Below are positions 8,254 through 34,195 of a DNA stretch of 64,000 bases, one piece after another. Source of the DNA: Candidatus Bathyarchaeota archaeon (GTDB taxonomy: Archaea > Thermoproteota > Bathyarchaeia > Bathyarchaeales > Bathycorpusculaceae). Each line of letters opens with the position of its first letter. Positions within the stretch are counted from its first letter, which is position 1. Under the pieces are notes generated by a model. That model was not told the origin of the DNA. It worked only from the letters and a program-made list of their open reading frames with translations, and made no database searches. The translations under genes were made by a program, and so were the position numbers. The stretch lies in contig CAWHVC010000001.1 in NCBI GenBank assembly GCA_963832745.1, positions 512,001 to 576,000 on the forward strand. The letters run 5' to 3'.

Positions 8254-11200
8254 GTGACATCTTCAACCGAGCAAGCTGATTCTAACCAAAGTTTACCTAC
8301 TAATTATACTCCGCTTGAACTAGAAAAACAAATACGCGAATACTGGACAAAAAACCTTATCCGCGAAAAACTCGAGCAACTACGAGATTCACCAGCCATT
8401 AAGGGCAACCTTGGCTACGTAGAAGGCCCACCCACCTTAAATGGCATACCTCACATTGGGCACGCGCGTGGACGCATCATGAAAGACATCCGTTACCGCT
8501 GGAAAACCATGGAAGGTTACTACATGCCTTTCTGGGCAGGATGGGACTGCCAAGGCTTACCTGTCGAACTTGAAGTTGAAAAACTTCTCGGCGTCCGTAA
8601 TAAACGTGAAATGCTTGAACGTGTCGGTATGGAACGCTTCATAGCTGAATGCAAAAAAGCCATCATGCGTTACCACGAAATGTGGCTAAACGCCGATAGC
8701 CTCCTCGGCATCGCCATTAATCAAGACAAAGCTTACTGGACCTACAAAGACGAGTATATAGAACGTGAATGGCAAATTCTCAAATGCGCCTGGGACCAAG
8801 GCTTGTTAGAAGAAGGACACTACGTTGTCGCTTACTGTCCAGGATGCCAAACAAGCCTTAGCAGCGCTGAAGTCGGCTATGAAGGCAGCTACAAAGAAGT
8901 TGAAGACCCCTCATTCTACTTCAAATTCAAAGTCACAGGCACCGAAAACGAGTACTTCCTCGTCTGGACAACTATGCCGTTCACCATAATCACCGACACC
9001 ATGCTTGCTGTTCAGCCAAACGCTGAATACGTTAAAGTCCAAGTTAACTCTGAAACGTGGATTATGGTTAAGCAACGCGTAGAACCTGTCATGACTGAAC
9101 TGGAAATCAAAAATTACCAAATCCTTGAAACCGTTACAGGTAGAAGCCTCGAAGGCACCGCATACGATTACCCCTTAAAAGACATAATTCCCAAGCAAGC
9201 GGAAAATGAAACCAAACACCCATTAGTTCACAAAGTTATCGGTGAAGATTTTGTTGACGTAGACACAGCCACCGGTGTAGTTCACCTTTCACCTGGCAAC
9301 GGTGAAGATGATTTCTGGGCAGCAAACCGCCGAGGCGTCCCCATCTATGCACCTTACGATGACGATGTCAAATTTACTAAAGATGCTGGCTTATTTGTAG
9401 GCATTTTCGCTCGGGACGCTGACATGCCCGTCGTGGAAGAACTCCGTAACCGCAACGCTTTCGTCGCCCTCAAAAAGACAAAACACGAGTATCCAACCTG
9501 CTGGCGGTCTCACCACAAAATCGTTTGGCTTGCCCGCAAAGAATACTTCCTACGCACCGACAAAATCAACGCCAAAGTCCTTGAAGCAGCCCAAAAAGTC
9601 AGCTACTTCTATGAAGAACCCAAAAACCGTTTCTTCGCATTTCTGCGTGAAGGTAAACCATGGTGTATCAGCCGTGAACGCATCTGGGGTACACCATTGC
9701 CCATGTGGACCTGCCAAGCATGCGGCAACAAACGTTTAGTTGCAAGCAAAAAAGAATTAATTGAACTCTCTCAGGAGCCGATTCCAGATGATTTTGAACT
9801 GCACAAGCCATGGGTTGACCGTGTTACAATAAAATGCAGCAACTGTGGCGGCGTGATGAAACGGGAAGACTTCGTTTTGGATACTTGGCACAACAGCGGT
9901 GCTTCACCATACGCGCGTTTTACGGATGAGGAAATCGAAAAGTTTATCCCTGCAGACTTTTTGACCGAAGGTATTGATCAAACAAGGGGTTGGGCAAACT
10001 CTTTGTTGCTTGAAAACGTTATTCGTACAGGTAAAGCTGAAGCTCCTTACAAGTCTTTCTTGTTCCAAGGCTTAACTCAGGATGCTAAAGGCCGTAAGAT
10101 GAGTAAAAGCTTAGGAAACACGGTTGAAACGGCGAAAATGCTTGAAAAAACCAGTGCGGATTTGTGCCGTTTTTACATGATGCGCAAATGCAGTCCGATT
10201 GATTTCATGAATTTTGACTTGCAAGAACTTAGCCGCCGCAGTTACCAAGTCCTATCCACACTGTACCATTTAAGCAGATTCTTTTTGCAAAACGCAGAAT
10301 TTGACGAATTCAACCCTGCAACTTACAGCATGGATTGGGCAATTAAAAACGGTAAACTCCAGCCAGCCGACAAATGGATGCTCAGTAAAATGCAGGAGAA
10401 AATTCAGCAATATACAGAGAACCTTGGAAAATGTGAGTTCAATGCGGCTGTAGCTTTACTTGATGACTTCGTTATTGAAACGCTTAGCCGCTTGTATGTG
10501 CCGATGATTCGCAAAGAACTTTGGACTGATGAACCTGAAACTTTGGAACGCCGCCAAACCATCTATGCTCTTTTGCACCATACACTCAAAACCGTTACGT
10601 TGCTGTTTAACCCTGTTACGCCCTACTTAACTGAGGCATTGTACCAGAAAGTTTACCGTAAACTCGAACCAAACCTACCTGAATCGGTAAACTTTGAAAA
10701 ATGGCCACTTGTAAACGAAGCACTTCGAGACAAAACGTTGGAAGAAGAATTTGACACTATGCTTAAAGCCGTCTCAATCTCGTACGCTGCACGTCAACAA
10801 GGCAAACTGAAACGTCGCTGGCCACTTGCTAAAGCCATTGCAGTTGCTCCACAAAAAACCCTTGACGCGCTTAAACACCTTGAACCAATCCTTCTTGACT
10901 TAACCAACGTTAAAAGCGCCGAATACTCCATAGCCGTTCCAGAATATGTTGGAGGGGAAAATTGGGTGTCAGCACAAGAAAACGACTTGACGATCTTTAT
11001 TAGTGGACAACGTGACGAAACCTTGCTGGGTGAGGGCATCATGCGTGATTTAGCACGCCGCGTCCAAGCATTGCGAAAAGAAATAGGTTTCACCCCAACT
11101 GACGTACTTGTATCCGCACACATCGCTGAACTCGACGCTGAATCCATGCAACTGCTAAAACCGTATCTTGAAGAAATGGCAGGCTTAATCCGTACAAGAA

Positions 11201-21708: not shown

Positions 21709-22013
21709 GCCGTAATCGCCTGCGGAACCTTTTCTGGACGAAGTTTTGACAAATTCAAAAAAGCAGGACTAAACCCCGTGCCCGGCAAAAAAGTCCAAGC
21801 CCCCGCTATCCAAAAATGCTAGCCCACATTGAATGCACCGTAGAAGACAAATTCACAACAGGCTACCACACCGTCTTTGTCGGCAAAGTTGTAGAAGCCT
21901 ACGCAGACATGGGCATCTTCACAGAAAGCTACGACATAAAACGCGCACACAGGGTATACCACGGCGGCGGAAACAACTTTTACACACTAGACCCCAAACA
22001 ATACAAACCCTAA
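21709..22013 (+). pseudogene. Flavin reductase family, 5'-truncated and frameshifted
   Basis: ACGTFSGRSFDKFKKAGLNPVPGKKVQAPAIQKC, frameshift near 21820, then AHIECTVEDKFTTGYHTVFVGKVVEA. Confidence 0.8.
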
Positions 22014-22084
22014 ACTTTTTTCCTGTAGCGTGCTTTAACCCTCCGAGGGTAGGAAATTCACCTATTAAGTGGCGGGTGCTTTTT

Positions 22085-22912
22085 TCAAATCTTGTTGTTA
22101 CTAAAGTAATCAATCAACTGATACATTTTCTTGCAGTATATTCTAAAGGACAAAAGATATGCAAACGCCAAATCTCTCTCAAGTTTTCGACCTGATGGAT
22201 GACCTGCTTCATTTCTGGCGAGCCTTATTATATTGAAAATGCCATCGAATTGGAATTCTAATTCGTTGGTTAACTCTGGGGGGAGATTCTTTAAACTCAT
22301 TAATTTTGTTTTTGTTTGGTTAAATTTGTTTTTTGTCCTTATTGAATCCTGTAATTTTAGGAAATGATTTTTTTCGGACAAATTAGTCATGGCTTCAGTA
22401 AACTTTTCCAAGAATATCTCAAATACCTTTTCGGATGCTCCCCCCAACATCACAGCGCACGAAAGCATGAGCCCTTTTTGAAATGCATGAAGAGCCTCAA
22501 ACGCATAATCTTCAATTAATTGGTCTAAATTTGGGATTTCAGCCTTGAGTCTTCGTAAATAACCTGTAGGGTCGTAAGGAAGCAAATCGCCAGATTCTAA
22601 GACTTGTTTGCCATATGCAGTAATTGTAACTGATTTAAAATCGCCATTAAACTCATCTTTTCCAATAAGCAACATTCCTTGAAGAATAAATTCCCAGATA
22701 ATTTGGCGCACTTTTTCTCTATCTTTTGTAGGCATGTATTTCTTGTTTCCAGTGCCACAAGTATATTGGAATGGTTTGGAGTCGCTATAGAATCCCTTTG
22801 AACGTGCAATCATGTCAGTTTCATCTATTACCTCTTCTAACCACCAAGTTTGTTTCTTCGACAGCAATTTTAATGCCTCAAGTGCAAGAGGTCTTAGCTC
22901 TTCATATTCCAC
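22085..22912 (-). CDS. Hypothetical protein with C-terminal HEPN-like RNxxxH motif (candidate defence nuclease)
   Basis: EALHAF..SCAVMLGGASE..IRLARNEAGHP; lies in AT-rich island. Confidence 0.7.
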   Translation of the reverse strand: MEYEELRPLALEALKLLSKKQTWWLEEVIDETDMIARSKGFYSDSKPFQYTCGTGNKKYMPTKDREKVRQIIWEFILQGMLLIGKDEFNGDFKSVTITAYGKQVLESGDLLPYDPTGYLRRLKAEIPNLDQLIEDYAFEALHAFQKGLMLSCAVMLGGASEKVFEIFLEKFTEAMTNLSEKNHFLKLQDSIRTKNKFNQTKTKLMSLKNLPPELTNELEFQFDGIFNIIRLARNEAGHPSGRKLERDLAFAYLLSFRIYCKKMYQLIDYFSNNKI

Positions 22913-23056
22913 TAATTTTCCTCACACAGTTATTTACCAAAATTTTGCTTTTAGTTTTTGCCCTTCTTACTTTTAGGTCTATTATAGGAATGTTAGGGGA
23001 TTATTATTGGGAAGGTCATCAAATGGTTTGGAAAAATTGCAAATTTTGATTTTTGC

Positions 23057-23767
23057 CTACAATAAATTACCTGTTATGACTAATGTCAATGCCACTAACC
23101 CCGTAACCGCAAAGCAAACTGTAGCATAATCAAACATTGCTAATCCTTTAGTAATGTTAATTGATTTTAACGCTATTTTAGTAAACTGAAAAAGAATCAC
23201 TGATGAAACCGTAAAGAAAATGTCATAAAAACCCTTGACAGCAACAGGGGAACTTTGAAAAACGCTGTTAGCAAACTGAAAAAGCGATGTCACCATTATA
23301 CTTGCAATAATAGCCACCATTATGCCCCAAAAAAATATTCTTCCGTCTTTATTTTCTTCGAGACAATCCATTGTTTTTGGCATATTGCTATTTCCTAACG
23401 AGTTAAATTCTGTTTTTGCATTGCTTGTTTTTGATTTAGAATTTACTTTATGTTTTTTTCTTAACTCCATAATTGATTCGAGTTTCTCGCCTAACTCAAC
23501 CCTCTTTACCAAATCATCAATGAATTTAATATGCTTGTCATGCGTTTTGCTCATATCATACGCCATATAAAATGCAAGACCGTAAATCAACGCATTAGCG
23601 ACGATTAGGACAGTTAAATCAATCGTACCTTCAAAATATACAGTAGCGAATAAAATAACGAAGCCAACAACACCACCTGTGGCTATCGAAGCTTTAAAAT
23701 TAAACCATCCTTGGTAACTGCTTTCGAGGGTTTGAATTTTTTGAAGGTCAATTTCTTGTTGAGTCAT
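23057..23767 (-). CDS. Hypothetical membrane protein
   Basis: 236-aa ORF with two hydrophobic blocks. Confidence 0.6.
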   Translation of the reverse strand: MTQQEIDLQKIQTLESSYQGWFNFKASIATGGVVGFVILFATVYFEGTIDLTVLIVANALIYGLAFYMAYDMSKTHDKHIKFIDDLVKRVELGEKLESIMELRKKHKVNSKSKTSNAKTEFNSLGNSNMPKTMDCLEENKDGRIFFWGIMVAIIASIMVTSLFQFANSVFQSSPVAVKGFYDIFFTVSSVILFQFTKIALKSINITKGLAMFDYATVCFAVTGLVALTLVITGNLL

Positions 23768-23917
23768 TCACAAAATGTTATGCCTGTGTGCTTTTAGTCT
23801 TTGCGCTAACTAACTACAACAGTGTTTCAAATTTTTAGTCATAATTTTAACAATAAAATGGTAAATTATTGTTATAATTACATTTATATACGAGAATGAC
23901 AATTAAAATAATCAGCA

Positions 23918-24343
23918 ATGCCAGCCATTAAAGAACCAATTAACCCGTTTTTTAGCTCAAATACAGGGGGCAGAGAACTTTACTGTGGATGGGAAATTAC
24001 CACCTATACAGGAAAATTGAATCCCGATTTAATTTTGAAAAAGTTAAAAAATAATTTGGCTGAATGGGTCCTCCATACTGAATACGAAAATAATTATTTT
24101 CAGAACGACTTTGGCGACAAAGTTCATTTAATTTTTCCAGAAAAAACATGCAATGAAACAACGTATAAAATAATTCTCAAATCATATGTTTTCGGTCCTA
24201 AAAATGAGGTAAAACACAAATCATTATTCAATGAGGTTTATTCCCACATACCTTGGAAAAAAGAGGGCTATTGGCTAAAAGATAACAATCTACATATCCC
24301 AATAGCAATACGAAAAAGACTTAGAAGGAAAAGTAAAAAATGA
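23918..24343 (+). CDS. Hypothetical protein
   Basis: 141-aa ORF with TTTATATA box about 30 bp upstream. Confidence 0.6.
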   Translation: MPAIKEPINPFFSSNTGGRELYCGWEITTYTGKLNPDLILKKLKNNLAEWVLHTEYENNYFQNDFGDKVHLIFPEKTCNETTYKIILKSYVFGPKNEVKHKSLFNEVYSHIPWKKEGYWLKDNNLHIPIAIRKRLRRKSKK

Positions 24344-24680
24344 TTTAGGGTTTACGAAAAGTTTAACCTCAAACACGTAAGAGTTTTGTGCTTGTAAACT
24401 CTTTAGGGAAAAAACACTACCCCCACTCACCTTTTAGCCTAAACCATACAAAAGTCGTAATCTTTTGGTCTCTTCTTGATTTAATGTGGATTTCAACTTT
24501 TGCTTTTTTGTCTTTTAAACTTTGAAATCTGTTCTTGTTTGTCTTTTCACTGATATTCTGTGTCATAGTATGATACAAATGGGGATTTGGTCGGTTATTT
24601 CGAATGTTTATTTTAGTACATTTTTTTGTCAAGCTTTTTTTGGTTGTTTTTTGTTTTGGCTGTGGGGGTGCCGTTGGCGG

Positions 24681-25175
24681 TTATTCTTTTCCTAAAAATG
24701 AATTAAACATCATCTGGTTAATGGTGCATTTTTTGCCTGTTATCCAGACTTCATCTGCCATGTTGACTGCTTCATCGGCTTTCTCGCTGGCTGTCTCAGG
24801 GAAAACCGCAACCACGTAACTGTCTCGGGGCAAACACGTCTGCAACACCGCAAGCCGCTTCCTAAGCCAACCCAACTTAACCTCTGAGGCACACTCAACC
24901 CCAAACACCGTGCCCTCTGCATGTTTGGCAAGAACTTTAACAAAAACTGTTTTATTGCCAAAAACTATGGGAACATCAAACTTTATGTCTCTAACGCCTC
25001 GGTCATTCCAAAACTTCAAGACTGCCGCAACCTTTAGCTGCTCGATTATGGCTGAATTTTTGTGTGAATATATTTTGTATTTTTCTCTGAGTTCTTCGGG
25101 TAATTTGTTGGTTAGGTTTTTTATTTCGTTGTGGAGTGCTAAATTTTTGTCTTTTTTCTCCATTTGTGCAGTCAC
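24681..25175 (-). CDS. Hypothetical protein, possible degenerate PD-(D/E)XK fold
   Basis: ..FVKVLAK..VFGVECAS.. alpha/beta pattern; fold call is tentative. Confidence 0.6.
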   Translation of the reverse strand: MTAQMEKKDKNLALHNEIKNLTNKLPEELREKYKIYSHKNSAIIEQLKVAAVLKFWNDRGVRDIKFDVPIVFGNKTVFVKVLAKHAEGTVFGVECASEVKLGWLRKRLAVLQTCLPRDSYVVAVFPETASEKADEAVNMADEVWITGKKCTINQMMFNSFLGKE

Positions 25176-25367
25176 CTATTACAGGCATTCACAGACAATG
25201 CCGTGTGTTTCTTATTCTGCGCTCTTTTTATTTAAGGCTTACACACAAATCTTTTACAATTAAATACATTGTTTGGCATTGTTTTGATGCACTTAGATAT
25301 ATATGAATATACAAGCTAATGATAAAAAACAACGCACCTAGCGCTTTAAACAGGAAAGAAGCGTAAA

Positions 25368-25547
25368 TTGAAGAAAATAGTTAAGCTAAGAAAACAAGGC
25401 AACTGCTTGGTCATCACTATTCCACGAGACCTGCTTGAAGACTTAAAATGGACAGAAAATGACCAAATCTTAATCGAAAGCCAACCTCAAAATGCCGATT
25501 CGATGTTTAAGGGTCCAAAGTTCATTAAAGCAGGCAAGATAGATTAA
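25368..25547 (+). CDS. AbrB/MazE/SpoVT family DNA-binding protein (59 aa)
   Basis: MKKIVKLRKQGNCLVITIPRDLLEDLKWTENDQILIE; not in ORF track. Confidence 0.85.
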   Translation: MKKIVKLRKQGNCLVITIPRDLLEDLKWTENDQILIESQPQNADSMFKGPKFIKAGKID

Positions 25548-25631
25548 CGCTTATTGCGATTCCTTGCTGCCCATTTAGTCGATTGTTTAGTTTCTTTATT
25601 TTAGGGCTTTTTTAAGCGCAAAATTGTTTTT

Positions 25632-25920
25632 AGGGTTGGTTTGTGTTGTTTGGTTTTTTGGGCGGGATGTTTCCTGTTTTAGGGGTCATGCTAGTGCCCC
25701 CATGTATTGTGCTGTTCACTGCTTTTCGCTGCCATCGCTGCTTTATTTTTCATATCAACCTATTAGGATCCAAATAGCAGATGTATGCAGAAACCTATAG
25801 AGGGTCTACCTTTCTTGATAGGGGTAGACTCTACCTGCACTTTTCCAAGCCCAAAACTGCAAAACACTAAGGGGGGTAGGTGCTAATGACTGAAAAATAC
25901 GCCATTAACATGTTGAAAAA
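25632..25920 (-). repeat. Dispersed intergenic repeat, long copy B
   Basis: Reverse complement aligns in colinear blocks with 53981-54236. Confidence 0.8.
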
Positions 25921-25985
25921 CGGTACTTTGAAAAACTAAACAGGTTACGGAATCATTAACTATTAGGTGGGCAACTGTTTCCGTT

Positions 25986-26564
25986 ATGAAGCAGGTTATA
26001 CTCATCACAGGCACGCCGTGTGTCGGCAAAACCACCCTTGCCAAACAACTCGCCAACAGCTTAAGCGCGCTTTACGTTAACTTGACCGATTACGCCAAAC
26101 AAAACAATTTGACCTTAGGCGAAGACACCCAGCGCAACACAACCATTGTGGATGAAGAAAAAATGCGGCAAGCCCTCACCACAACCATAAACATGTCAGA
26201 AACATCCGTAGTAATCGATGGACATTTCGCCGCTTCCGTTGTACCCAAAAGCTTGTCCACACACGTTTTCGTACTCCGCCGAAACCCAATAGAACTGAAA
26301 AAATTCATGCAAAAAACTGGTTTCTCAGAAGCCAAAATGTATGAGAACCTTTCGGCAGAAATTTTGGATATATGCCTTGTGGAAGCAATGGAAAATCAAG
26401 AAGGCAAAGTCTGCGAATTAGACGTTACCGCAAAAACTGTTGAGCAAACCGTTGATGAGGTTCTTGCGGTCATTCGAGGAGAAAAAGTGTGTTCTTGCAG
26501 CGTTGTTGATTGGCTGGGAATGCTCGAAAATGAAGGCTTAACCGACCAATACCTCAAAGAATAA
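25986..26564 (+). CDS. Adenylate kinase, AK6/Fap7-type
   Basis: ITGTPCVGKTT P-loop, VIDGHF, VLRRNP, ENLSAEILD. Confidence 0.92.
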   Translation: MKQVILITGTPCVGKTTLAKQLANSLSALYVNLTDYAKQNNLTLGEDTQRNTTIVDEEKMRQALTTTINMSETSVVIDGHFAASVVPKSLSTHVFVLRRNPIELKKFMQKTGFSEAKMYENLSAEILDICLVEAMENQEGKVCELDVTAKTVEQTVDEVLAVIRGEKVCSCSVVDWLGMLENEGLTDQYLKE

Positions 26565-26574
26565 AACAGTTTTT

Positions 26575-26937
26575 TTATCTGAAACTTTCTATTTTCTGTT
26601 TTGTCAGCAACATGATTTTTCTGCGGTTTGAATACGATTTTGCGTGATCGCTAAATTTTTCGCCAACCATAATCGGACTTGACAAGCCAACATCTTCCGA
26701 GGCAGTATCCAATGTTATTATGACGTTAACGCCGATTGTACGATTCCAATCCCGTATCCAGACCCCCTGCTCGTTGCGGCCTTTCTGCACAATTAAGTCA
26801 AAATGACGTGGCATGCCGCTGTTGCCCTCCATAGTAGCGTTTTCGCAGTTAACTTTGAAACCTTCTTTTTTGAAGTAGGCTAACGCCATTTCCACTAACC
26901 GTGACCGAACTTTCGGTTGTTCCTCCCCAAGACTCAC
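26575..26937 (-). CDS. Mrr-like restriction endonuclease-fold protein (catalytic motif degenerate)
   Basis: YFKKEGFKV..GNSG..HFDL..FSDHAKSYSNRRKIMLL. Confidence 0.7.
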   Translation of the reverse strand: MSLGEEQPKVRSRLVEMALAYFKKEGFKVNCENATMEGNSGMPRHFDLIVQKGRNEQGVWIRDWNRTIGVNVIITLDTASEDVGLSSPIMVGEKFSDHAKSYSNRRKIMLLTKQKIESFR

Positions 26938-27011
26938 GCTGTTTATGCTCCCTTTATTCCCTAACTGTTATCTGCTTGTGTGTGGAAAAGGCTTTCGGAA
27001 GATTAACTAAA

Positions 27012-27233
27012 ATGGCGACAACATCAATCATGAAATGCCCCAGTTGCAGCGGCTTAGTCCTCGCGGGGATTCGGCAAAAAACCAAAATCTGCCCCTACTG
27101 CGGCAAAACCATTAATCTCCAAAAAGCGATGCTCGTTGCCCAAGCAGCAAACTCTATGGAAGCCTCAGAAATGCTCAAACAGCTTAAAGCCAAACAAGCC
27201 CAAAACCCAAGCCCCAAAACTAAACGTGCCTAA
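27012..27233 (+). CDS. Zn-ribbon protein (DUF1922-like)
   Basis: KCPSC..KTKICPYCGK. Confidence 0.75.
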   Translation: MATTSIMKCPSCSGLVLAGIRQKTKICPYCGKTINLQKAMLVAQAANSMEASEMLKQLKAKQAQNPSPKTKRA

Positions 27234-28171
27234 CGTACTTGACGTAGCATTTCACAGGCTTTGCACAATTCCTGCGCTGAAGGTTCTCCGCATTCACAAC
27301 AAGTTTTAAAGTTCTCCTTCACGGTAGTTTGCTCAAGAGCAGGACGTAGCCGTTCCATGGCTCGAGAAACAGTAAATTTTGTTCCCGCATGCTTTTCCTC
27401 CATTCGGTTAAGCATTGCACGAACATCATTTCGCAAGGCTTCGGAAGCGTAAGGGCACGGAGTGTCTTGGAAAGGAATCTTTTTAACGTAAGCATACAAT
27501 GCGCTTTCGTTTTCAGGGATTTCACAGAAAGGCTTGATTTTGCGGACCAGCTTTGGGTGTGCTTCACTTGTTACCGGTTTTTCTTTTGCTAAACGTGAAA
27601 TGTCACCCCGAAGAATATTCATAAGAACTGTTTGGGCTTCATCATCAAGCGTATGAGCTGTAGCAATTTTTGTGGCGCCTACTTCCCTTGCGGCAACATT
27701 CATGGCTCTACGCCGCAGAACACCACAATAAGCACAAGCAGTCAACTCTGTTTGCCCATTTACTCTGGCTTTGGTAAGTAACTCGTCAAGGGTTAACCCG
27801 AAAAGCTCTTTAAAAGATACAATATGATACGGAATCTCTAAACTTTTACAGTTTTCCACCGCAATATTCAACGCCTCATCACGGTAACCTTTGATGCCTT
27901 CATCCACTGTTACTGCGACAAGCGATGTTTTCGGTCTAAACCGCTTCAGTTTAGCTAAAATGTGCAGTAAGCTTAAACTGTCTTTTCCGCCTGAAACCGC
28001 AACTGCTAAACGGTCATCATACTCGAGCATGTGATGTTTAGTTATGGTTGCTCTGACTTTTGCTTCAATGGATTCTCCGAAGCATTTTCGGCAGAGTTTT
28101 TCGCCAGAGTATTTTCTGCTGAAGAATGGCTCTTTGCGTTTGCATGCAGTACAAACTGTTGATGTCGTCAC
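27230..28171 (-). CDS. tRNA 2-thiolation protein NcsA/TtuA (TIGR00269 family)
   Basis: AVSGGKDS PP-loop, CAYCGVLRR, TAHTLDDEAQT, CPY, terminal Zn fingers. Confidence 0.93.
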   Translation of the reverse strand: MTTSTVCTACKRKEPFFSRKYSGEKLCRKCFGESIEAKVRATITKHHMLEYDDRLAVAVSGGKDSLSLLHILAKLKRFRPKTSLVAVTVDEGIKGYRDEALNIAVENCKSLEIPYHIVSFKELFGLTLDELLTKARVNGQTELTACAYCGVLRRRAMNVAAREVGATKIATAHTLDDEAQTVLMNILRGDISRLAKEKPVTSEAHPKLVRKIKPFCEIPENESALYAYVKKIPFQDTPCPYASEALRNDVRAMLNRMEEKHAGTKFTVSRAMERLRPALEQTTVKENFKTCCECGEPSAQELCKACEMLRQVR

Positions 28172-28306
28172 TTGAACTCATTCATTTTGATTCTGACATT
28201 AGTTAAAAGGGTTTTTGGCAATTTTTTGCAGCTTTCTCTGTATCTTTACCCCTGTTTTGCGTAATGCTTAAAAAAATAGTGCACCCTTTATCTTTTAGGA
28301 CCATTT

Positions 28307-29056
28307 ATGTCTGAATTGGTTCACCCCTCCCTGTTAGTAAAATATTTGACCGATAAACTACATTTACACAATGCCCGCTCGAGAGTTGCCGCATCAATCC
28401 TTAGCAAAAGAGCCAGCAAATGCAAAACGCTGCAGGATTACATTTCATTAAGTAACAAAATTTTCAGCTGTTTTCCATTAAAATATGTCGGTTGGTCTCT
28501 TCAACCAGCACAAGTTACTCAAGAACTCGAGGCATTACTTTTAGAGTTTAAAAAAATGGGCGTAAGCAGAATGCTTGAGATAGGCACCTACAACGGAGGC
28601 ACGCTTTTTCTTTTCGCTAAAATGGCAAATCCAAACGCCAAACTTTTAAGTTTAGATTTGCCTGGCGGCGAATTTGGCGGTGGCTATGAACAGTTTAAGG
28701 TATCCTTTTTTACAAATTTTGCGCACGATGCCCAAAAAATTTTTTTAATTCGTGACGATTCTCATTTGCAGCGTAGCTTGTTTAAGGTTAAGTCAATTTT
28801 GAATGAGGACCTGTTGGATTTCATGCTTATTGATGGTGACCATACTTATGAGGGCGTGAAGAAGGATTTTGAAATGTACAGTCCGCTTGTTCGTAAGGGC
28901 GGCATTATTGCGTTTCATGATATTTGCGAGCATCCAACGTATCTTTGTTGTGGCGTTGATAAGTTCTGGAATGAAGTTAAACAGTGTTACAAATATCAGG
29001 AATTTATTAATAATCCGCATCAAAATTGGGCAGGCATAGGCCTCATCTACACCTAA
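28307..29056 (+). CDS. Class I SAM-dependent methyltransferase (Methyltransf_24-like)
   Basis: LEIGTYNGGT, IDGDHTYEGVKKDF, GGIIAFHD. Confidence 0.9.
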   Translation: MSELVHPSLLVKYLTDKLHLHNARSRVAASILSKRASKCKTLQDYISLSNKIFSCFPLKYVGWSLQPAQVTQELEALLLEFKKMGVSRMLEIGTYNGGTLFLFAKMANPNAKLLSLDLPGGEFGGGYEQFKVSFFTNFAHDAQKIFLIRDDSHLQRSLFKVKSILNEDLLDFMLIDGDHTYEGVKKDFEMYSPLVRKGGIIAFHDICEHPTYLCCGVDKFWNEVKQCYKYQEFINNPHQNWAGIGLIYT

Positions 29057-29120
29057 TAAAACATTGCTTGTTTCTTTGAGGCGTATTTAATAGCCGTATT
29101 TTGCTGTTAACTATTAAACG

Positions 29121-29840
29121 GTGTATTGTGTGGCTGTAAAACCAACGAAAAACTCCACTATCAAAAGCGTAAACTATACTGCGGAACATTGGCAAATGTT
29201 ATTACAGTTCAGAGAAAAAGCCAAACAGATACTTAACGCATTACAAAATAATCATTTACATGCAGTAACTCACGGAAGCATTGCACGAGGAGACACCAAC
29301 AAAAAAAGTGACGTTGACGTTTTCATCCCTGAAATCCAAAACAGTTTCCTTGTTGAAACAGCGCTAGAAAAAAGCGGCATACGAATTAACAACCGATTTA
29401 TTGTGCAAGCAACCCCAACTTATGCGATGAAAGCCTACATTGAAATTGATGAGCAAACAAGCGTTTCTTTTCCGCTTATGCAAATGCGAAAAGTTGAACA
29501 GGAATTTTACCGGTTTGGTGGAGAAGTTAATCTTGTTCAGCTTGAACAAAACCTGCGTGTACCTGGCGTAAATAAACGTTTAATGCTTATTGAGCCAACA
29601 GAAAATGGTCATGTAGAAAGCAGCATAATTGGAAAAGAAGAGTACGTGGCAAAAATGTTAGGGATTACAACGCAAACGGTTCTTGACCGTGTTCATGCCC
29701 TTCTAAGGCGGGATGAAGTTGGCAGAACAGGCGTTTTTGTTAAGAAAGAATTATGTCCAGATGAAACGTTTGAGTTGGCGCTTAAACGGCTAGCAGATTT
29801 GAACCCTGCCGTGCGCCGAAGACTTAAAAAAGAGTTTTAG
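29121..29840 (+). CDS. Archaeal predicted nucleotidyltransferase
   Basis: HGSIARGD...SDVDVF, EFYRFGG, RVPGVNKRL, RRDEVGRTGVF. Confidence 0.88.
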   Translation: MYCVAVKPTKNSTIKSVNYTAEHWQMLLQFREKAKQILNALQNNHLHAVTHGSIARGDTNKKSDVDVFIPEIQNSFLVETALEKSGIRINNRFIVQATPTYAMKAYIEIDEQTSVSFPLMQMRKVEQEFYRFGGEVNLVQLEQNLRVPGVNKRLMLIEPTENGHVESSIIGKEEYVAKMLGITTQTVLDRVHALLRRDEVGRTGVFVKKELCPDETFELALKRLADLNPAVRRRLKKEF

Positions 29841-30406
29841 GATGGGGCTGGATAGTAGATTAATTCTTTTTCTTCCAGTAACGCTTGGATTTTATCTACT
29901 GCCTCATACACTTGTTCTTCTTTCTTTGCACCTACACAGACAAGTTTGCCTGCGCTGAAGATTAAGAAGACCACTTTTGGCTCATCCATTCTGAAAACTG
30001 CACCTGGGAACTGTTCAGGTTCATACATGACGCGGCTTAACTTGTAAACTAAGCTTTCAAGGTCAATTTCGCCGCCTAGTTCTGCAGAGGCAACAATGTT
30101 TTGAATGTTAACGATTGGTTTCTCTGTGATTTGGATGCCTTCGCCGCGTAGTTCTTTAACAACTTTTTCTACTGCGCTGCGTGATTCTTTTTCTGATTTG
30201 GCACCAGTGCAAACCATTTTTCCTGTACCGAAGATTAAAGTGGCGGTTTTAGGCTTTTTTAGTCTGAAAACTAAGCCTGGGAACACGCTTGGGTTGTACT
30301 CAGTTTGGGGGAACTTTTCAACTATCTTTTGTAAGTCTATTTTTTGGTTAAGTGAAACTGATGCTACAATGTTCTGGATGTTAATGATTGGTTTTCGTTT
30401 ACTCAT
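29837..30406 (-). CDS. tbp: TATA-box-binding protein
   Basis: Two repeats of IQNIVAS..Y(N/E)P..FPG..LIF..GK.VC.GAK. Confidence 0.99.
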   Translation of the reverse strand: MSKRKPIINIQNIVASVSLNQKIDLQKIVEKFPQTEYNPSVFPGLVFRLKKPKTATLIFGTGKMVCTGAKSEKESRSAVEKVVKELRGEGIQITEKPIVNIQNIVASAELGGEIDLESLVYKLSRVMYEPEQFPGAVFRMDEPKVVFLIFSAGKLVCVGAKKEEQVYEAVDKIQALLEEKELIYYPAPS

Positions 30407-30618
30407 GTCAACTCACGTGTCTTAGTCTATTTAAATAGTACACACGGGGTATATAAAGCATCTATTTATAAAGGGTTTTGAGCTAAGATTTTTGTTTAAA
30501 AAAAGCATTTTCTTTGTTGCTTCAGGGGTAAAAACATGTTTTTATTCAAGTTTATACATGTAAACGTTTTAATTTAGACACCTAACAGGCGCGCCTTAAA
30601 GTGTCAAATATTAGTGGA

Positions 30619-30627
30619 TTTTTTGAG
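30619..30627 (+). repeat. Target-site duplication, left (TTTTTTGAG)
   Basis: Identical 9-mer at 34187-34195 directly abutting the right TIR. Confidence 0.92.
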
Positions 30628-30650
30628 GATACTGTTAAGTTAAGTTACCT
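30628..30650 (+). repeat. Left terminal inverted repeat
   Basis: GATACTGTTAAGTTAAGTTACCT is the exact reverse complement of 34164-34186. Confidence 0.97.
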
Positions 30651-30729
30651 AATCAAAAAATTCTTCTACCTAAGAAACAATGGAGTATTTGGATGTTGTC
30701 AGTTTTTTATTGGAGGTATTTGCTAGCAA

Positions 30730-31810
30730 ATGAGCGGTAGCAAAAAAATTTATATGACTTCTGATAATGCAAATCGTGCAAAAAATATGATTTACGCAGT
30801 TTGGAACAATAAGGGCGGTACTGGAAAAACTTTTCTCACTTTTATGATGGCTGGTGAGTACGCCGCAGATAACCCTGAACAGAAAGTGGTTGTCATTGAC
30901 CTTTGCCCTCAAGCTAATGTAAGCGAGATAGTATTGGGTGGAAACGGGCGTGGCTCAACTGTTACTAGATACTCTTTTAAATAAAAAACCTAAACGATTA
31001 ACCATCGGCGGTTATCTGGATGACAGAATTTCATCACCTTACAAGATTACAGGAACAGAAGCAGATTATCTCGTAAATCCTTTATCAATGGGCTATAATG
31101 TTAACATGCCTGCAAACTTATACATCATTGCTGGAGACCCATCTCTGGAACTGCAAGCTCAAGTTATAAATCAATTGAGCATTTTGCAGCAACCAGAAGA
31201 CGCTTGGAAAAAAGTGCATTCATGGATAATCGATCTAATATCAGAGATTAAAAAATACCTTGGAGAAGATACTATGTTCTTCATAGATTGCAATCCAAGT
31301 TTTGCATCTTATACTGAATTGGCAATCCTCGCTTCAGAACGATTAGCAGTGCCGTGTAGCGCCGATGGGTCATCTGCAAGAGCAATTGACAACATGGGTA
31401 GATTAGTTTATGGCGTTAATGTCCCTTCACAATACCAGAAAACGAACTTTTTCAGTAATGTAAAGGCGTTTAATATGAAATTACCTGAAATACATCTAGT
31501 TATACTTAACAGAAGCACTCAATATGGTAGTAAGGCATCTAAAGGATTTAGCGCTATGTTTGGTGAAATAAAAAGAAGGACAGATGCACTCGCCGCAACA
31601 AAGATTATTCCCTTCTCAAAGAACTCAGGTCTTTACGTAGATATTCCAGATAATCACACGTTATCGATAGTTTGTTCACATCTAGGGTTGCCAATTTCTT
31701 CTCTAAAATCAGGTACACCATACAATGTTCATGGAAAGACCACAGTTATTCCGAAGAGTTCTTACGATACATATCTTGCTGCTGTTCACAACTTAATTGA
31801 CGCATTATAG
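30730..31810 (+). pseudogene. ParA/MinD-family ATPase split by one frameshift near 30960
   Basis: NNKGGTGKT and IDLCPQAN in ORF 30730-30984; FFIDCNPSF and VPCSADGSS in ORF 30938-31810. Confidence 0.85.
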
Positions 31811-31818
31811 GAATTTTC

Positions 31819-31971
31819 CTAAGTAATCTTCACTTTCTGTTTTATTTTACTTTCATACTCGTCCTCGGTTATGATTCCTTTTTCGATAAGCAAGTCAACT
31901 AAGGCTGAGTGCATGTTATCTAAGAGGTCTAGTTCTTCTAATGGTTCTCTTTCAACTTTATTCTTTTTCAT
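31819..31971 (-). CDS. Small SHOCT-like protein (50 aa)
   Basis: MKKNKVEREPLEELDLLDNMHSALVDLLIEKGIITEDEYESKIK; AGGTGG SD; overlaps the RHH gene end. Confidence 0.75.
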   Translation of the reverse strand: MKKNKVEREPLEELDLLDNMHSALVDLLIEKGIITEDEYESKIKQKVKIT

Positions 31972-32125
31972 GTTTTCCACCTTTTGCTAAGTAACCTTGT
32001 TCTGATAGCCAATTAATGATTATATTACGAAGAGTGTCACTATGACCTTCTCCAAGCGTGCCAACAAGTTCTTTGTCTAATATTTCGACTACGCCATCAG
32101 GTAATGAAACTAAGATTTTCTTCAT
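31958..32125 (-). CDS. Ribbon-helix-helix (CopG/Arc-like) regulator (55 aa)
   Basis: MKKILVSLPDGVVEILDKELVGTLGEGHSDTLRNIIINWLSEQGYL; ATGA overlap with the transposase stop. Confidence 0.8.
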   Translation of the reverse strand: MKKILVSLPDGVVEILDKELVGTLGEGHSDTLRNIIINWLSEQGYLAKGGKHEKE

Positions 32126-33030
32126 TTACTTACTACCTTTAACCCTTCTTTCTCTTCCGCCTTTTCTGTTAAGGCGTTTACTAGCGTTGTAGCTTCTTTT
32201 TTGGTAGCTTCATCAATCAAGCCTTTCCAGTTATTAGGAATGTTCATTCTTGCGGCTTGAGCGGGAGTTTTTCCGCCGAGACTTTGGTGTGGTCTTACGC
32301 AGTTGTAGTGAACTGACCAGCCTTCGAGTAAGAGTTTTGTTGAGTCATAGCTGTGTAGCCCTCTCATGCATCGAGTTCTATCTTTTAATGTACAGTGTAA
32401 TCGTTCGACTATGTTGTTGGTTTCTCTTGCTTTTATGCCGACTCTTTGCACTAACTCAACTCTTGTGTCCTTGCGCATTGTGTAGAATACTTTGTTAAAC
32501 GCACTCTTGTAAACATGGCTGCCGTCAACAAATACCGCTCTTGGTCTAACCTTGCTCTGTTGAACACCTTTCTTAAAGATACTAACTGTATCCTCAAAAG
32601 TTCGAGTATTGGAAAGATGTGAAGCAACCATAAATCGTGTGTCCTCATCAATCATTTCCCAGAACCAAATACTGCGCCCCTCACAACTCAGCATAGTTTC
32701 ATCTTCATGCCATAAACCTGAAAGCTGTGGAACTTCTGCAATCATGTATTCTTTGACTAATTGTGAGTATTTTTTAATCCAGTTTAGAATTGTAACTTGT
32801 GAAACTTTTTCGCCAAAAACTTGCTCTAAGTTGCGTTGGGTTTTTCTTAGGGACATGCCGTCGTAGTAGAAGTTTAGGGCTGCGACAATTATGTTTTTGT
32901 CGTTTCGCATTCTTGAGAATTTTGTGTTTGGTACAAAGATGTGACCGCAGTCTTTGCATTTGTAGGTTTGCTTGTTGTGGCGTATGCCTTTTTTGGTGAC
33001 GTTTGCTGAGTTGCAGTATTTACAGTTCAT
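32122..33030 (-). CDS. DDE transposase, IS6-related, with N-terminal Zn ribbon and HTH
   Basis: CKYC..CKDC, MSLRKTQ..VSQVTILNWI HTH, catalytic WHEDET / FVDG / NNIVERLH, HYNCVRPHQSLGGKTPA. Confidence 0.95.
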   Translation of the reverse strand: MNCKYCNSANVTKKGIRHNKQTYKCKDCGHIFVPNTKFSRMRNDKNIIVAALNFYYDGMSLRKTQRNLEQVFGEKVSQVTILNWIKKYSQLVKEYMIAEVPQLSGLWHEDETMLSCEGRSIWFWEMIDEDTRFMVASHLSNTRTFEDTVSIFKKGVQQSKVRPRAVFVDGSHVYKSAFNKVFYTMRKDTRVELVQRVGIKARETNNIVERLHCTLKDRTRCMRGLHSYDSTKLLLEGWSVHYNCVRPHQSLGGKTPAQAARMNIPNNWKGLIDEATKKEATTLVNALTEKAEEKEGLKVVSK

Positions 33031-33041
33031 GGCTTTTCACT

Positions 33042-33059
33042 GGTATCTTATAAGATACC
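33042..33059. promoter_or_regulatory. Perfect 18-bp palindrome (candidate operator) just upstream of the transposase start
   Basis: GGTATCTTATAAGATACC, between a TATATA box (~33065-33071) and the ATG at 33030. Confidence 0.65.
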
Positions 33060-33171
33060 TACAGTATATATGTTTTGTGTTAGTTTTTAAACACTTAACA
33101 AAATGTCATTCAAGTTTTTGTAACTTAACAAAAAGTATATCTTGTCGTACTTCACCATAAAAAGTAGGGAG

Positions 33172-33246
33172 CACCCCAAGGGGGATTTGAACCCCCGACC
33201 TAGCCCTTAGTAGGAGCCTGCAATTTCCTGACTATGCTATTGGGGC
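33172..33246 (-). tRNA. tRNA or tRNA-like gene, anticodon ACT, short variable arm, Arg-like body
   Basis: GCCCCAA TA GCAT AGTCAGGAAA TTGC A GGCTC CT-ACT-AA GGGCT AGGTC GGGGG TTCAAAT CCCCC TTGGGGT G; U8, A14, G15:C48, G18G19, U33, TTC and A58 all present. Confidence 0.85.
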
Positions 33247-33252
33247 GCTTAA

Positions 33253-33310
33253 CGTTGGGATAACATCATGGGTCGAAAGGCATTCTTTTGGACATGATGT
33301 TATCCTAACG
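33253..33310 (-). other. Long hairpin immediately 5' of the tRNA-like gene
   Basis: CGTTGGGATAACATCATG (33253-33270) / CATGATGTTATCCTAACG (33293-33310), 17 of 18 positions complementary. Confidence 0.8.
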
Positions 33311-33340
33311 GTCACTCCATTAGAGAATGACTTTGATTTT

Positions 33341-33850
33341 CTAGAACGCATTGTTTAGTCCTGTGCTTAATGGTTTAGCGCCGTCACCCTGTAACTGACC
33401 ACTTTTTATTATGCCCATACTTTCTTCCAGAGATTTTGTCAAAGGTTTGAAAACATATTTTTTAAGATTCTTTTCGCATGTAGGTAATGCTTCGAATCTG
33501 CCTTGCTTTTGGTGTTCAATTATCTTCCTTGCGTTTTGAAGTAATAATGATAATTTGCGGTATTCACGGGGATTTTGGCGAGAAGTTATTTTTTCTTTTA
33601 AAAAGTAACTCGCTATCGTCAAAATGTCATGTTCGTATTTTGGTGGTATAGATAATATAAAAGTTAGCAGTTGGTCAACATCAGGCATTCTTTGCATAAG
33701 AGTTGACTTGTATGTGCTAGATGTTTTTTCGTATGTAGCAGGGCGGTCAGTTGGTCTTTTTGTCATACGCTGTATAATTTCTAAGATTTCTTCTTGCGAA
33801 CCTTCAATTTCAAATGTTTGGTTGTCTATAGCAAACTTTAGTTTTGGCAT
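33341..33850 (-). CDS. Transposon passenger, hypothetical protein
   Basis: 169-aa ORF with TTTATATAA box about 20 bp upstream; lies inside the TIRs. Confidence 0.75.
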   Translation of the reverse strand: MPKLKFAIDNQTFEIEGSQEEILEIIQRMTKRPTDRPATYEKTSSTYKSTLMQRMPDVDQLLTFILSIPPKYEHDILTIASYFLKEKITSRQNPREYRKLSLLLQNARKIIEHQKQGRFEALPTCEKNLKKYVFKPLTKSLEESMGIIKSGQLQGDGAKPLSTGLNNAF

Positions 33851-33922
33851 TAGATACCATCAACTCGTTATATAAAGTAGGAATAGCCTAGAATTTAAGC
33901 GTTTACACATTACTTCACGCAA

Positions 33923-33941
33923 GTGATTCACGGTGAATCAC
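33923..33941. promoter_or_regulatory. Perfect 9-1-9 palindrome (candidate operator)
   Basis: GTGATTCAC-G-GTGAATCAC upstream of the 33850 promoter. Confidence 0.55.
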
Positions 33942-34163
33942 GTTTTAACACATACACGGTTTCAATAAAAGTGCTAGAATTATATGTTACGTTATTAATC
34001 GTATCATGGACTGCTTGCCGTGTTTATATATAAATATTAAAATCGCACTCGTAAATTTAAGATAGCACAATTTCCACTGGAACTTAGATAAAAAAGCTGT
34101 GAAAAATTATTCAACCATATGGTCAATTTACCGCCCCCGCAATAACCCTCTTATTTTTAGCAC

Positions 34164-34186
34164 AGGTAACTTAACTTAACAGTATC
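34164..34186 (-). repeat. Right terminal inverted repeat
   Basis: AGGTAACTTAACTTAACAGTATC. Confidence 0.97.
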
Positions 34187-34195
34187 TTTTTTGAG
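34187..34195 (+). repeat. Target-site duplication, right (TTTTTTGAG)
   Basis: Matches 30619-30627. Confidence 0.92.

Follow-up and report, generated by a model that had tools for sequence, protein, structure and literature searches.

A transposon-borne family of archaeal tRNA genes with anticodon ACU and arginine ancestry

The stretch of DNA analyzed here, called the window, comprises 64,000 nucleotides (nt) of a Candidatus Bathyarchaeota archaeon (GCA_963832745.1, contig CAWHVC010000001.1) and corresponds to C1:512001-576000 of a 3.02-Mb, five-contig archaeal genome that is labelled G000. It contains an IS6-family transposon that carries, besides its transposase, a tRNA gene with anticodon ACU (ACT in the DNA). 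This tRNA belongs to a family that is firmly shown to be real, selected, mobile and of arginine ancestry. As to its use, the tentatively preferred reading is that the arginyl-tRNA synthetase (ArgRS) of the host charges the tRNA, which would then cause low-level insertion of arginine in place of serine at AGU.

33172..33246, minus strand: tRNA with anticodon ACU (A34, C35 and U36 at 33211-33209), with A20 and G73; CCA is not encoded.

Read from 33246 to 33172, the gene forms a full cloverleaf of 75 nt. The acceptor stem (GCCCCAA/TTGGGGT) begins with a G1:U72 wobble pair and is followed by U8 and A9; the D arm (GCAT-AGTCAGGAAA-TTGC) has A14, G15, G18, G19 and A20, with U13 and U22 mismatched; the anticodon stem (GGCTC/GGGCT) includes two G:U pairs and closes the loop CTACTAA, which supplies U33, A34 C35 U36, A37 and A38; the variable loop has five nucleotides (AGGTC, with C48); and the T arm is GGGGG-TTCAAAT-CCCCC (T54, T55, C56 and A58). 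G73, at 33172, is followed by CTCC, so no CCA is encoded. ARAGORN calls the same gene and names it "tRNA-Ser (act)", and the Rfam model RF00005 matches it at 54.1 bits against a gathering score of 29 bits (E = 7.3e-09 for the 64-kb window) over model positions 1-71 of 71, which is the sole Rfam match above cut-off in the window. A structure on the opposite strand was considered and rejected: neither ARAGORN nor Rfam calls a tRNA there, and the sole plus-strand match is below threshold (Plastid-ycf2, 26.4 versus 65.7 bits). The initial annotation, made from the sequence alone, had described a complete minus-strand cloverleaf with anticodon ACT inside the transposon, and this is borne out by ARAGORN (the tRNA-caller check that it had proposed, which returns a tRNA with anticodon act), by Rfam and by the inverted repeats, with every nucleotide that it listed present. 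The same annotation had seen a hint of a non-canonical role in G1:U72 and in an extension of the acceptor stem by the pairs C-1:G73, G-2:C74 and A-3:U75; these features are peculiar to the window copy, since G1:U72 occurs in one of the 20 distinct family sequences described below and the extra pairs are not kept in the flanks of homologues, for which reason they are treated as incidental. Compared with the tRNAs of its host, the window tRNA reaches a best identity of 56/76 and is foreign to the host set; it is the sole A34 tRNA among the 47 genes that ARAGORN finds in G000, most of which, unlike it, encode CCA.

Homologues were sought by three routes. A BLAST search with the window tRNA, anticodon left free, against 200 genomes of the host's family found matches extending beyond the T arm in four genomes (G198, G009, G121 and G161), three of which are complete ACT tRNAs and one of which (G161) is truncated at its 3' end and has the loop CTACTGA. 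A pattern fixed on the anticodon loop and T arm, run on genome, viral and metagenome contigs, matched four genome contigs, all from Bathyarchaeia, and 24 metagenome contigs, and matched nothing in the viral contigs. The third route led through the transposase, which is at least 70% identical in ten genomes, G000 included: an ACT tRNA lies inside the element in G000, G009, G198 and G017, the element of G006 holds a different tRNA, and five elements have no tRNA that either ARAGORN or a covariance model of the family detects. The G017 copy (locus L109), found through its transposase, has the acceptor strand GAGAGTG, the T loop TGCAAAT and no G18G19, and its anticodon loop is still CCACTAA. Altogether there are 28 ACT tRNA genes, 20 of them distinct in sequence, and none with another anticodon, a constancy to be read in the light of 17 of the 20 distinct sequences having come from the pattern that fixes the anticodon. 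A pattern of T arm and acceptor stem without the anticodon matched none of 401 genomes across the class, which shows only rarity, as the pattern excludes the window copy and the sample was without known carriers. Assembly error or a lone mutation was rejected as the source of the anticodon because ACT recurs in 28 genes from independent assemblies.

The surroundings were surveyed at 30 loci, that of the window included. At 9 of the 30, the window among them, and also at L109, the two terminal repeats flank the tRNA. Wherever a locus extends far enough to include both ends of the element, the tRNA is enclosed by the same inverted repeats, and 20 of the 30 loci have a match to the transposase in the vicinity of the tRNA. 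Co-occurrence of the tRNA with homologous transposases, which the initial annotation had proposed to examine, holds in part: the ten elements whose transposase is at least 70% identical comprise four with an ACT tRNA, one with a different tRNA and five with none. The converse that it had named, related elements without the RNA or with broken stems, is not what is seen, in that related elements retain the RNA, the ACT anticodon and, through compensatory changes, the stems. Two neighboring observations belong here. One tRNA copy (L054:6635-6703, minus strand, identical to L076:5498-5566, plus strand) is an ACT tRNA cut off after the T arm, with the loop CTACTGA, and is joined to the apparent reverse complement of GATTCTTAAGGTTTGTGAC, a sequence conserved 20-40 nt downstream of the tRNA in transposons of the type with a tRNA-guanine transglycosylase (TGT) fold, which suggests inversion or recombination at the GATTCTTAAGGTTTGTGAC site. 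In G156, an intron-containing tRNA-Met (L113:10266-10365, plus strand) stands outside a related transposon, about 50 nt from it (right repeat at 10194-10216).

The gene is a genuine tRNA gene under purifying selection, and a single clade of IS6-family transposons in Bathyarchaeia bears the family as a conserved passenger. Covariation was computed over the 20 distinct sequences and 21 pairs, with 500 shuffles and slid partners as controls: 94.5% of cells form standard pairs; compensatory changes, in which both sides of a pair differ, occur in 13 of the 21 pairs, including all five of the anticodon stem and six of the seven of the acceptor stem; none of the 500 shuffles reaches any of five covariation measures; and slid partners give 39-63% paired. 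G:U pairs are numerous (G49:U65, for example, in 18/20) and fit only the tRNA strand, so that the selected structure is the RNA. The anticodon loop has the consensus C-Y-A-C-U-A-A, in which positions 32 and 34-38 are invariant in all 20 sequences and position 33 alternates between U (13 sequences) and C (7 sequences). A20, C35 and U36 likewise never vary (20/20), the discriminator is G73 in 14 sequences and A73 in the other 6, 14 of the 20 genes include the CCA, and the variable loop is AGKTC, five nucleotides long, except in L036, where it has seven. The invariant set includes U8, G10, C11, A14, G19, A20, C32, A34, C35, U36, A37, A38 and most of the T arm; the tertiary positions U8, A14, G18G19, T54-T55-C56 and A58 are present in the window copy and in 19 of the 20 distinct sequences, L109 being without G18G19 and T55. 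These data bear directly on the thought that the gene might be a functionless passenger, a copy of tRNA-Arg with U/C34 changed to A that the transposon captured once. A34 is indeed a single substitution away from CCT or TCT, the truncated copy in L054/L076 exists, the window copy has no CCA and a G1:U72 pair, and half of the close transposase relatives have no tRNA; decay, however, would break stems and scatter the anticodon, whereas 13 of 21 pairs have changed in compensation, 94.5% of cells remain paired and the anticodon is ACT in 28 of 28 genes, including those found with the anticodon free, so a pseudogene is a very improbable account of the family.

The ancestry of the family is best seen with a covariance model built from it (R1), which was run on G000 and on 150 genomes of the host's family. 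In G000, the model ranks its own ACT tRNA first (81.9 bits) and tRNA-Arg(TCT) second (74.8 bits), followed by Lys and Ile; among the 150 genomes, 62 have a match at E <=1e-18, and the best 20 loci are one family member, 18 tRNA-Arg(CCT) and one tRNA-Arg(TCT). In G000, A20 after G18G19 is found in the six normal-length tRNA-Arg genes that ARAGORN lists (five of them distinct), in one tRNA-Met and in no others. A20, C35, U36 or G36, and a purine at position 73 are the arginine identity nucleotides established for the bacterial and yeast ArgRS. From these sequence features it is concluded that the family is an A34 derivative of an AGR-reading tRNA-Arg, with the classical ArgRS determinants kept and assumed to be valid for the archaeal ArgRS as well. 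Each of the 28 genes has the anticodon ACU instead of the UCU or CCU of such a tRNA-Arg. The class-II shape of tRNA-Ser is excluded by the five-nucleotide variable loop, as the initial annotation had said of the missing long arm; the tRNA-Ser genes of G000 have 86-87 nt, or more if they bear an intron. An origin from tRNA-Arg(TCT/CCT), which had also been proposed, agrees with the R1 ranking and with A20, C35, U36 and G73, whereas overall similarity with the loop masked is not specific to arginine. As a separate observation on the arginine set of the host, a gene at C3:78185-78326 (minus strand) of G000, which ARAGORN labels an intron-containing tRNA-Pro(tgg), has 94% identity at 78185-78246 to positions 17-78 of tRNA-Arg(CCT) from related genomes, and is probably the host's intron-containing tRNA-Arg(CCU), misnamed.

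The distribution of conserved positions also invites a reading without decoding, in which the anticodon arm would be a binding site: it might lure an anticodon nuclease directed at tRNA-Arg, act as a sponge or sensor of ArgRS, or be bound by a protein of the element. The loop and the arginine identity nucleotides are the most conserved parts of a body that evolves fast (the tRNAs of L109 and L055 are about 60% identical while the TGT-like proteins beside them are 80% identical), position 33 tolerates both U and C, and L109 has lost the elbow contacts of G18G19 and T55 and keeps CCACTAA. Such a role is improbable, as the tRNA has no consistent association with a nuclease, toxin or defence gene, PADLOC finds nothing convincing in eight element proteins, and the core genes are the transposase and two small open reading frames (ORFs) only. 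Charging by ArgRS and decoding of AGU as arginine, the preferred reading, would call for the same conserved nucleotides in a tRNA made from the transposon, the features of which are as follows, with lengths of proteins in amino acids (aa).

30628..34186, no strand: whole IS6-family transposon, 3,559 bp, with perfect 23-bp terminal inverted repeats and a flanking direct repeat.
30619..30627, no strand: left target-site duplication TTTTTTGAG; the same nine bases follow the right repeat.
30628..30650, plus strand: left terminal inverted repeat GATACTGTTAAGTTAAGTTACCT, perfect, 23 bp.
30730..31810, plus strand: ParA-like ATPase gene, split by a frameshift into ORFs of 84 aa and 290 aa (tblastn against the L062 homologue).
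31819..31980, minus strand: 53-aa ORF, third in the transposase operon, kept beside the transposase in loci L109-L123.
31958..32125, minus strand: 55-aa ORF, second in the transposase operon, kept beside the transposase even in a clade at 50% identity; no Pfam match.
32122..33030, minus strand: intact IS6/IS240-type DDE transposase of 302 aa (DDE_Tnp_IS240, PF13610, E = 2.5e-19; rve_3, E = 1.9e-11).
33119..33140, minus strand: possible degenerate internal copy of the terminal repeat, between tRNA and transposase; a weak match, noted by eye and as one listed direct repeat.
33159..33163, minus strand: run of five T (T5), a likely transcription stop, 9 nt past G73; listed as terminator-like.
33253..33310, minus strand: leader hairpin 2, with an 18-bp stem, ending 6 nt ahead of the tRNA.
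33311..33331, minus strand: leader hairpin 1, with a 7-bp stem (GTCATTC/GAGTGAC), five of the seven pairs invariant across homologous loci.
33341..33850, minus strand: ORF169, a cargo gene lying immediately ahead of the tRNA, of a family without a match in Pfam, PADLOC or PHROG.
33869..33876, minus strand: TTTATATA box, 19-26 nt ahead of the ORF169 ATG; likely, from its position, the promoter of a unit of ORF169, hairpins and tRNA.
34164..34186, minus strand: right terminal inverted repeat, perfect, 23 bp.
34187..34195, no strand: right target-site duplication TTTTTTGAG, identical to the left copy.

On the strand of the tRNA the order is the TTTATATA box, ORF169, the two hairpins, the tRNA, the T5 run, the degenerate repeat, the transposase, the 55-aa ORF and the 53-aa ORF. 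The transposon is single-copy in G000, homologues of its transposase at 70-87% identity occur in nine other genomes of the family, and it was not found, by DNA or by transposase, in ten other genomes sampled from the same genus. Target duplications of IS6 elements are typically of 8 bp; the direct repeat here reads 9 bp, of which an extra shared T may be chance. An attachment site of the integrase type was considered and rejected, since the inverted repeats enclose a tRNA that is whole, the target duplication lies outside them, and the element has no integrase. Neither the ORFs of the element nor a Pfam search of them reveals a synthetase gene. The two ParA-like ORFs align in two frames, at 77% identity (tblastn), to an intact homologue of 356 aa in L062, a protein that matches AAA_31/CbiA and a ParA-like family of PHROG; the split, around 30938-30984, is either a frameshift mutation or a sequencing error. 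The insertion site is flanked by genes for TBP, ribosomal protein S30e and Elp3. In five genomes of the same genus, S30e-Elp3 is kept and the element is absent; homology there begins 45-57 nt to the right of the repeat, and TBP is not adjacent. The TBP gene (29837-30406, minus strand) is one of two copies in G000 that are 64% identical, the other being at C2:415226-415780, and G+C is lower, at 35-39%, across about 22000-32000 of the window; from the lower G+C and the position of TBP away from S30e-Elp3 in the five genomes, the transposon may be situated on the margin of a more extensive accessory region. A near-perfect palindrome, GTGATTCAC-G-GTGAATCAC (33923-33941), about 50 nt upstream of the TATA-like box of ORF169, is a putative operator.

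The transposon core consists of the transposase and the 55-aa and 53-aa ORFs, and it persists in clades without a tRNA; the tRNA is therefore cargo and not part of the transposition machinery. At all 30 loci, the tRNA follows by a few to about 95 nt the stop codon of an ORF on the same strand, and the family of that ORF varies: a TGT-like protein of about 450 aa in 14 loci, a protein of about 230 aa in 9, one of 621 aa in 3, and ORF169 in the window. ORF169 has no match in Pfam, PADLOC or PHROG, no usable match in the ESM Atlas and only three relatives among 5.8 billion proteins; a homologue, ORF154, occupies the same slot in L111. Two leader hairpins are common to the 230-aa group and the window. 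Hairpin 2, compared at seven loci, has compensatory changes in 8 of 18 pairs and G:U pairs that fit the strand of the tRNA only, and hairpin 1 has 100% of cells paired, with five of its seven pairs invariant and no compensatory change. No known RNA family was found for the hairpins, and the mascRNA model matches the window at only 16.7 versus 42.5 bits. Host tRNA genes mostly have a CTTTAAWA-like box 35-48 nt upstream, to which the TTTATATA box of ORF169 is similar, and no such host-type promoter box stands upstream of the ACT tRNA. Because the tRNA has no promoter box of its own and follows a cargo ORF, it would be cotranscribed with the cargo gene, freed by RNase P and tRNase Z (RNase Z) and terminated at the T5 run, an oligo-T stretch being presumably, as elsewhere in archaea, the signal for transcription to stop.

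The locus L111 of G006, where the transposase is 72% identical, offers a variant of this arrangement: ORF154 (9295-9759, minus strand) is followed by a hairpin and then, in the same slot, by another tRNA (9125-9214, minus strand). That tRNA is of class II, 89 nt long, with the leucine anticodon TAA, an acceptor strand (GCAGGGG) equal to that of the leucine tRNAs of G000, a discriminator G73 that is of serine type in G000, and CCG in place of CCA; it has no paralogues, beyond T-arm matches, in its own host and four other genomes, and from its sequence may be a second identity-mismatched tRNA.

This architecture would also suit RNA punctuation, in which the tRNA is a cleavage module for RNase P and tRNase Z that sets and stabilizes the 3' end of the cargo mRNA (left at the leader hairpins) and the tRNA, once released, is a by-product without a part in translation. 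The tRNA always stands directly after a cargo ORF, whatever the family of that ORF; no host-type promoter box precedes it; hairpins with covariation of the RNA type end 6 nt ahead of it; a T5 run follows it; and in L111 an unrelated tRNA takes its place. For RNase P and tRNase Z, however, the half of a tRNA that consists of acceptor and T arm is enough, whereas all five pairs of the anticodon stem have changed in compensation and the loop varies at just one of its seven positions, even though the bodies differ at every acceptor pair. A20, the purine at 73, and CCA in 14 of 20 sequences are features that serve charging and decoding and not cleavage. Punctuation as the whole purpose of the tRNA is accordingly held to be unlikely, though a serious contender, and a charged tRNA that reads AGU remains the preferred account of the conserved anticodon arm.

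The most frequent cargo upstream of the tRNA deserves separate mention. The protein of about 450 aa (L055:362-1705, minus strand, with homologues in 14 of the 30 loci) is a distant member of the TGT superfamily: it has no Pfam match, its zinc motif CxCxxC...H is invariant, its profile matches ArcTGT (1iq8) with E = 8.8e-12, and an AlphaFold2 model from 80 sequences (pLDDT 93.8) gives 50 listed Foldseek matches in the PDB, all of which are TGT; an earlier model from nine sequences was too poor (pLDDT 51.7). Since its neighbors are DNA methylases and a helix-turn-helix (HTH)-like protein, a DpdA-like role in DNA modification is possible for this cargo.

A further idea is that an enzyme of host or element modifies or exchanges A34, so that the tRNA would read AGA and AGG and supply extra arginine decoding for the genes of the element, which are AT-rich and AGA-rich. 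Compared with the host, the genes of the element favor AGA (50% of arginine codons versus 25%, from 42 arginine codons in the element), TTA and AGT, the body of the tRNA is that of an AGR-reading tRNA-Arg, and the TGT-fold gene is directly upstream in 14 of 30 loci. The preference for AGA means that a normal tRNA-Arg(UCU) would be useful, but it gives no reason for the conservation of A34. An ordinary copy with U34 could do the same work, yet no TCT or CCT member occurs among the 28 genes. TGT enzymes exchange guanine and not adenine, and the element of the window, like 16 other loci, has no TGT-like gene beside its tRNA. No A34-modifying enzyme is known in archaea, as far as the cited text reports (bioRxiv 10.64898/2026.05.15.725136). 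A supply of sense decoding is quite unlikely on this balance.

The preferred reading treats the family as a mobile counterpart, in archaea, of tRNAProX: an expressed, ArgRS-charged A34 tRNA that would read AGU as arginine at a low level. Misreading of serine codons as arginine had been one of three uses suggested by the initial annotation, a decoy for anticodon nucleases and a processing tag for RNase P and RNase Z being the others. By this account, the tRNA would be transcribed from the promoter of a cargo gene, here that of ORF169, through the two leader hairpins; RNase P and tRNase Z would excise it, and the CCA-adding enzyme would supply CCA in the window copy; the host ArgRS would charge it, as may be expected from the arginine identity set A20, C35, U36 and purine 73 that is kept; and unmodified A34, pairing best with U, would lead, at a low level, to arginine where AGU calls for serine. 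The result would be a natural dual-identity (missense) tRNA that is mobile. The precedent is tRNAProX, for which the cited text reports A34, a nucleotide other than U at position 33, mistranslation that was demonstrated, and a wrong name given from the anticodon (PMC10404621). A further study reports U as the best partner of unmodified A34, with modest pairing to C and weak pairing to G or A (PMC11066159), and another source, in the text cited, describes TadA/ADAT and tRNAs with ANN anticodons as absent from archaea and counts three ANN among 10,517 tRNAs, all in four-fold boxes (bioRxiv 10.64898/2026.05.15.725136).

Several observations weigh against this proposal. With the loop masked, the identity of the window tRNA to tRNAs of G000 is 0.62 for Thr, 0.60 for Arg-TCT and 0.60 for Ala, so that Arg is not favored, and part of the R1 ranking may stem from the likeness of the loops (CUCCUAA versus CUACUAA). 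AGT is not avoided in the genes of the transposon, where it makes up 21% of serine codons versus 15% in the host, and the columns of the transposase alignment that contain AGT have serine-like partners (T, A, N and AGC) and not arginine; hence there is no sign that AGU means arginine to the element, and mistranslation would affect the element's proteins as well. Recoding of AGU as arginine within the element found no support in the same serine-like columns, which are those of the transposase, the protein examined. No benefit to the transposon is evident, and the five of the ten elements with a transposase at least 70% identical that have no tRNA imply that the tRNA is dispensable for transposition. 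The slot of L111, with its different class-II tRNA, fits a generic role for any tRNA equally well, and C33, present in 7 of the 20 distinct sequences, breaks the rules for elongator tRNAs. With these points counted, decoding of AGU as arginine is considered possible, with a confidence somewhat short of even. A broader proposal built on it is doubtful: that a clade of DDE transposons spreads a "mistranslation cassette" in which arginine is placed at AGU by a tRNA driven by any upstream cargo gene, and that L111 may do likewise with its class-II tRNA, which has the leucine anticodon UAA, the acceptor stem of host leucine tRNAs and a G73 of serine type.

Whatever their use, the ACU tRNAs form an entire family that selection maintains and a transposon carries, in a domain where ANN anticodons are almost absent. 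A full-text literature search, which subscription journals and supplements lay outside, found no description of the family; no ANN anticodon of a split box is reported for archaea in the text cited, the supplements of which may list more ANN cases (bioRxiv 10.64898/2026.05.15.725136). If the tRNA is charged with arginine and used by the ribosome, archaea would have their first natural missense tRNA, and no earlier tRNA of this sort is known to be mobile; it would also serve as a natural experiment on the degree of codon ambiguity that cells tolerate, and as a candidate scaffold for orthogonal tRNAs; mobile tRNAs would then blur the genetic code in archaea, and a jumping gene could perturb the meaning of a codon. 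If it is a processing or decoy module instead, it would be a new use of the tRNA shape by a transposon. Either way it is a trap for annotation, as programs call an ACU tRNA tRNA-Ser.

Several known systems resemble the element in part. Like IS6 elements (IS26/IS240) with passenger genes, it has a DDE_Tnp_IS240 transposase, short inverted repeats and a target duplication, but it differs in the two conserved small ORFs after the transposase, in several kb of variable cargo (DNA methylases, TGT-fold, ParA-like and HTH-like proteins) together with the tRNA, and in a direct repeat of 9 bp. Like tRNAs of phages and other mobile elements, the ACT tRNA is accessory cargo of an element with a codon choice more AT-rich than that of its host; phage tRNAs, however, have legitimate anticodons, and ACU fits no standard tRNA set. 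It shares with the mascRNA of MALAT1 (RF01684) a tRNA shape downstream of a longer transcript, with a stable structure before it and an upstream 3' end that RNase P would make; it differs in conserving the full cloverleaf, the anticodon arm and the determinants of charging, and in an Rfam match to that model that stays below the cut-off.

The nearest functional parallel is the tRNAProX family (tRNAProA, tRNAProT and tRNAProN) of Streptomyces and relatives, which, in the text cited, likewise joins an anticodon and identity elements of different amino acids, conserves A34 and so pairs mostly with a U-ending codon, has a non-canonical position 33 in part or all of the family, is misnamed by programs according to its anticodon, and occurs sporadically (PMC10404621). 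The ACT family differs in being archaeal, in combining an arginine body with a serine codon of a split box in place of the proline type, in being known here from sequence alone, in having no adjacent paralogue of a synthetase, and in lying inside a DDE transposon after cargo ORFs. The nearest structural relative is the AGR-reading tRNA-Arg (CCU/UCU) of Bathyarchaeia, with which it shares the D arm AGTACGGAYAG with A20, the loop nucleotides C32, C35, U36, A37 and A38, a five-nucleotide variable loop and G73. From that chromosomal tRNA the mobile family differs by A34 in place of C or U34, by acceptor and anticodon stems that have been wholly replaced through compensatory changes, by C33 in 7 of 20 sequences and by the lack of a promoter box of its own.

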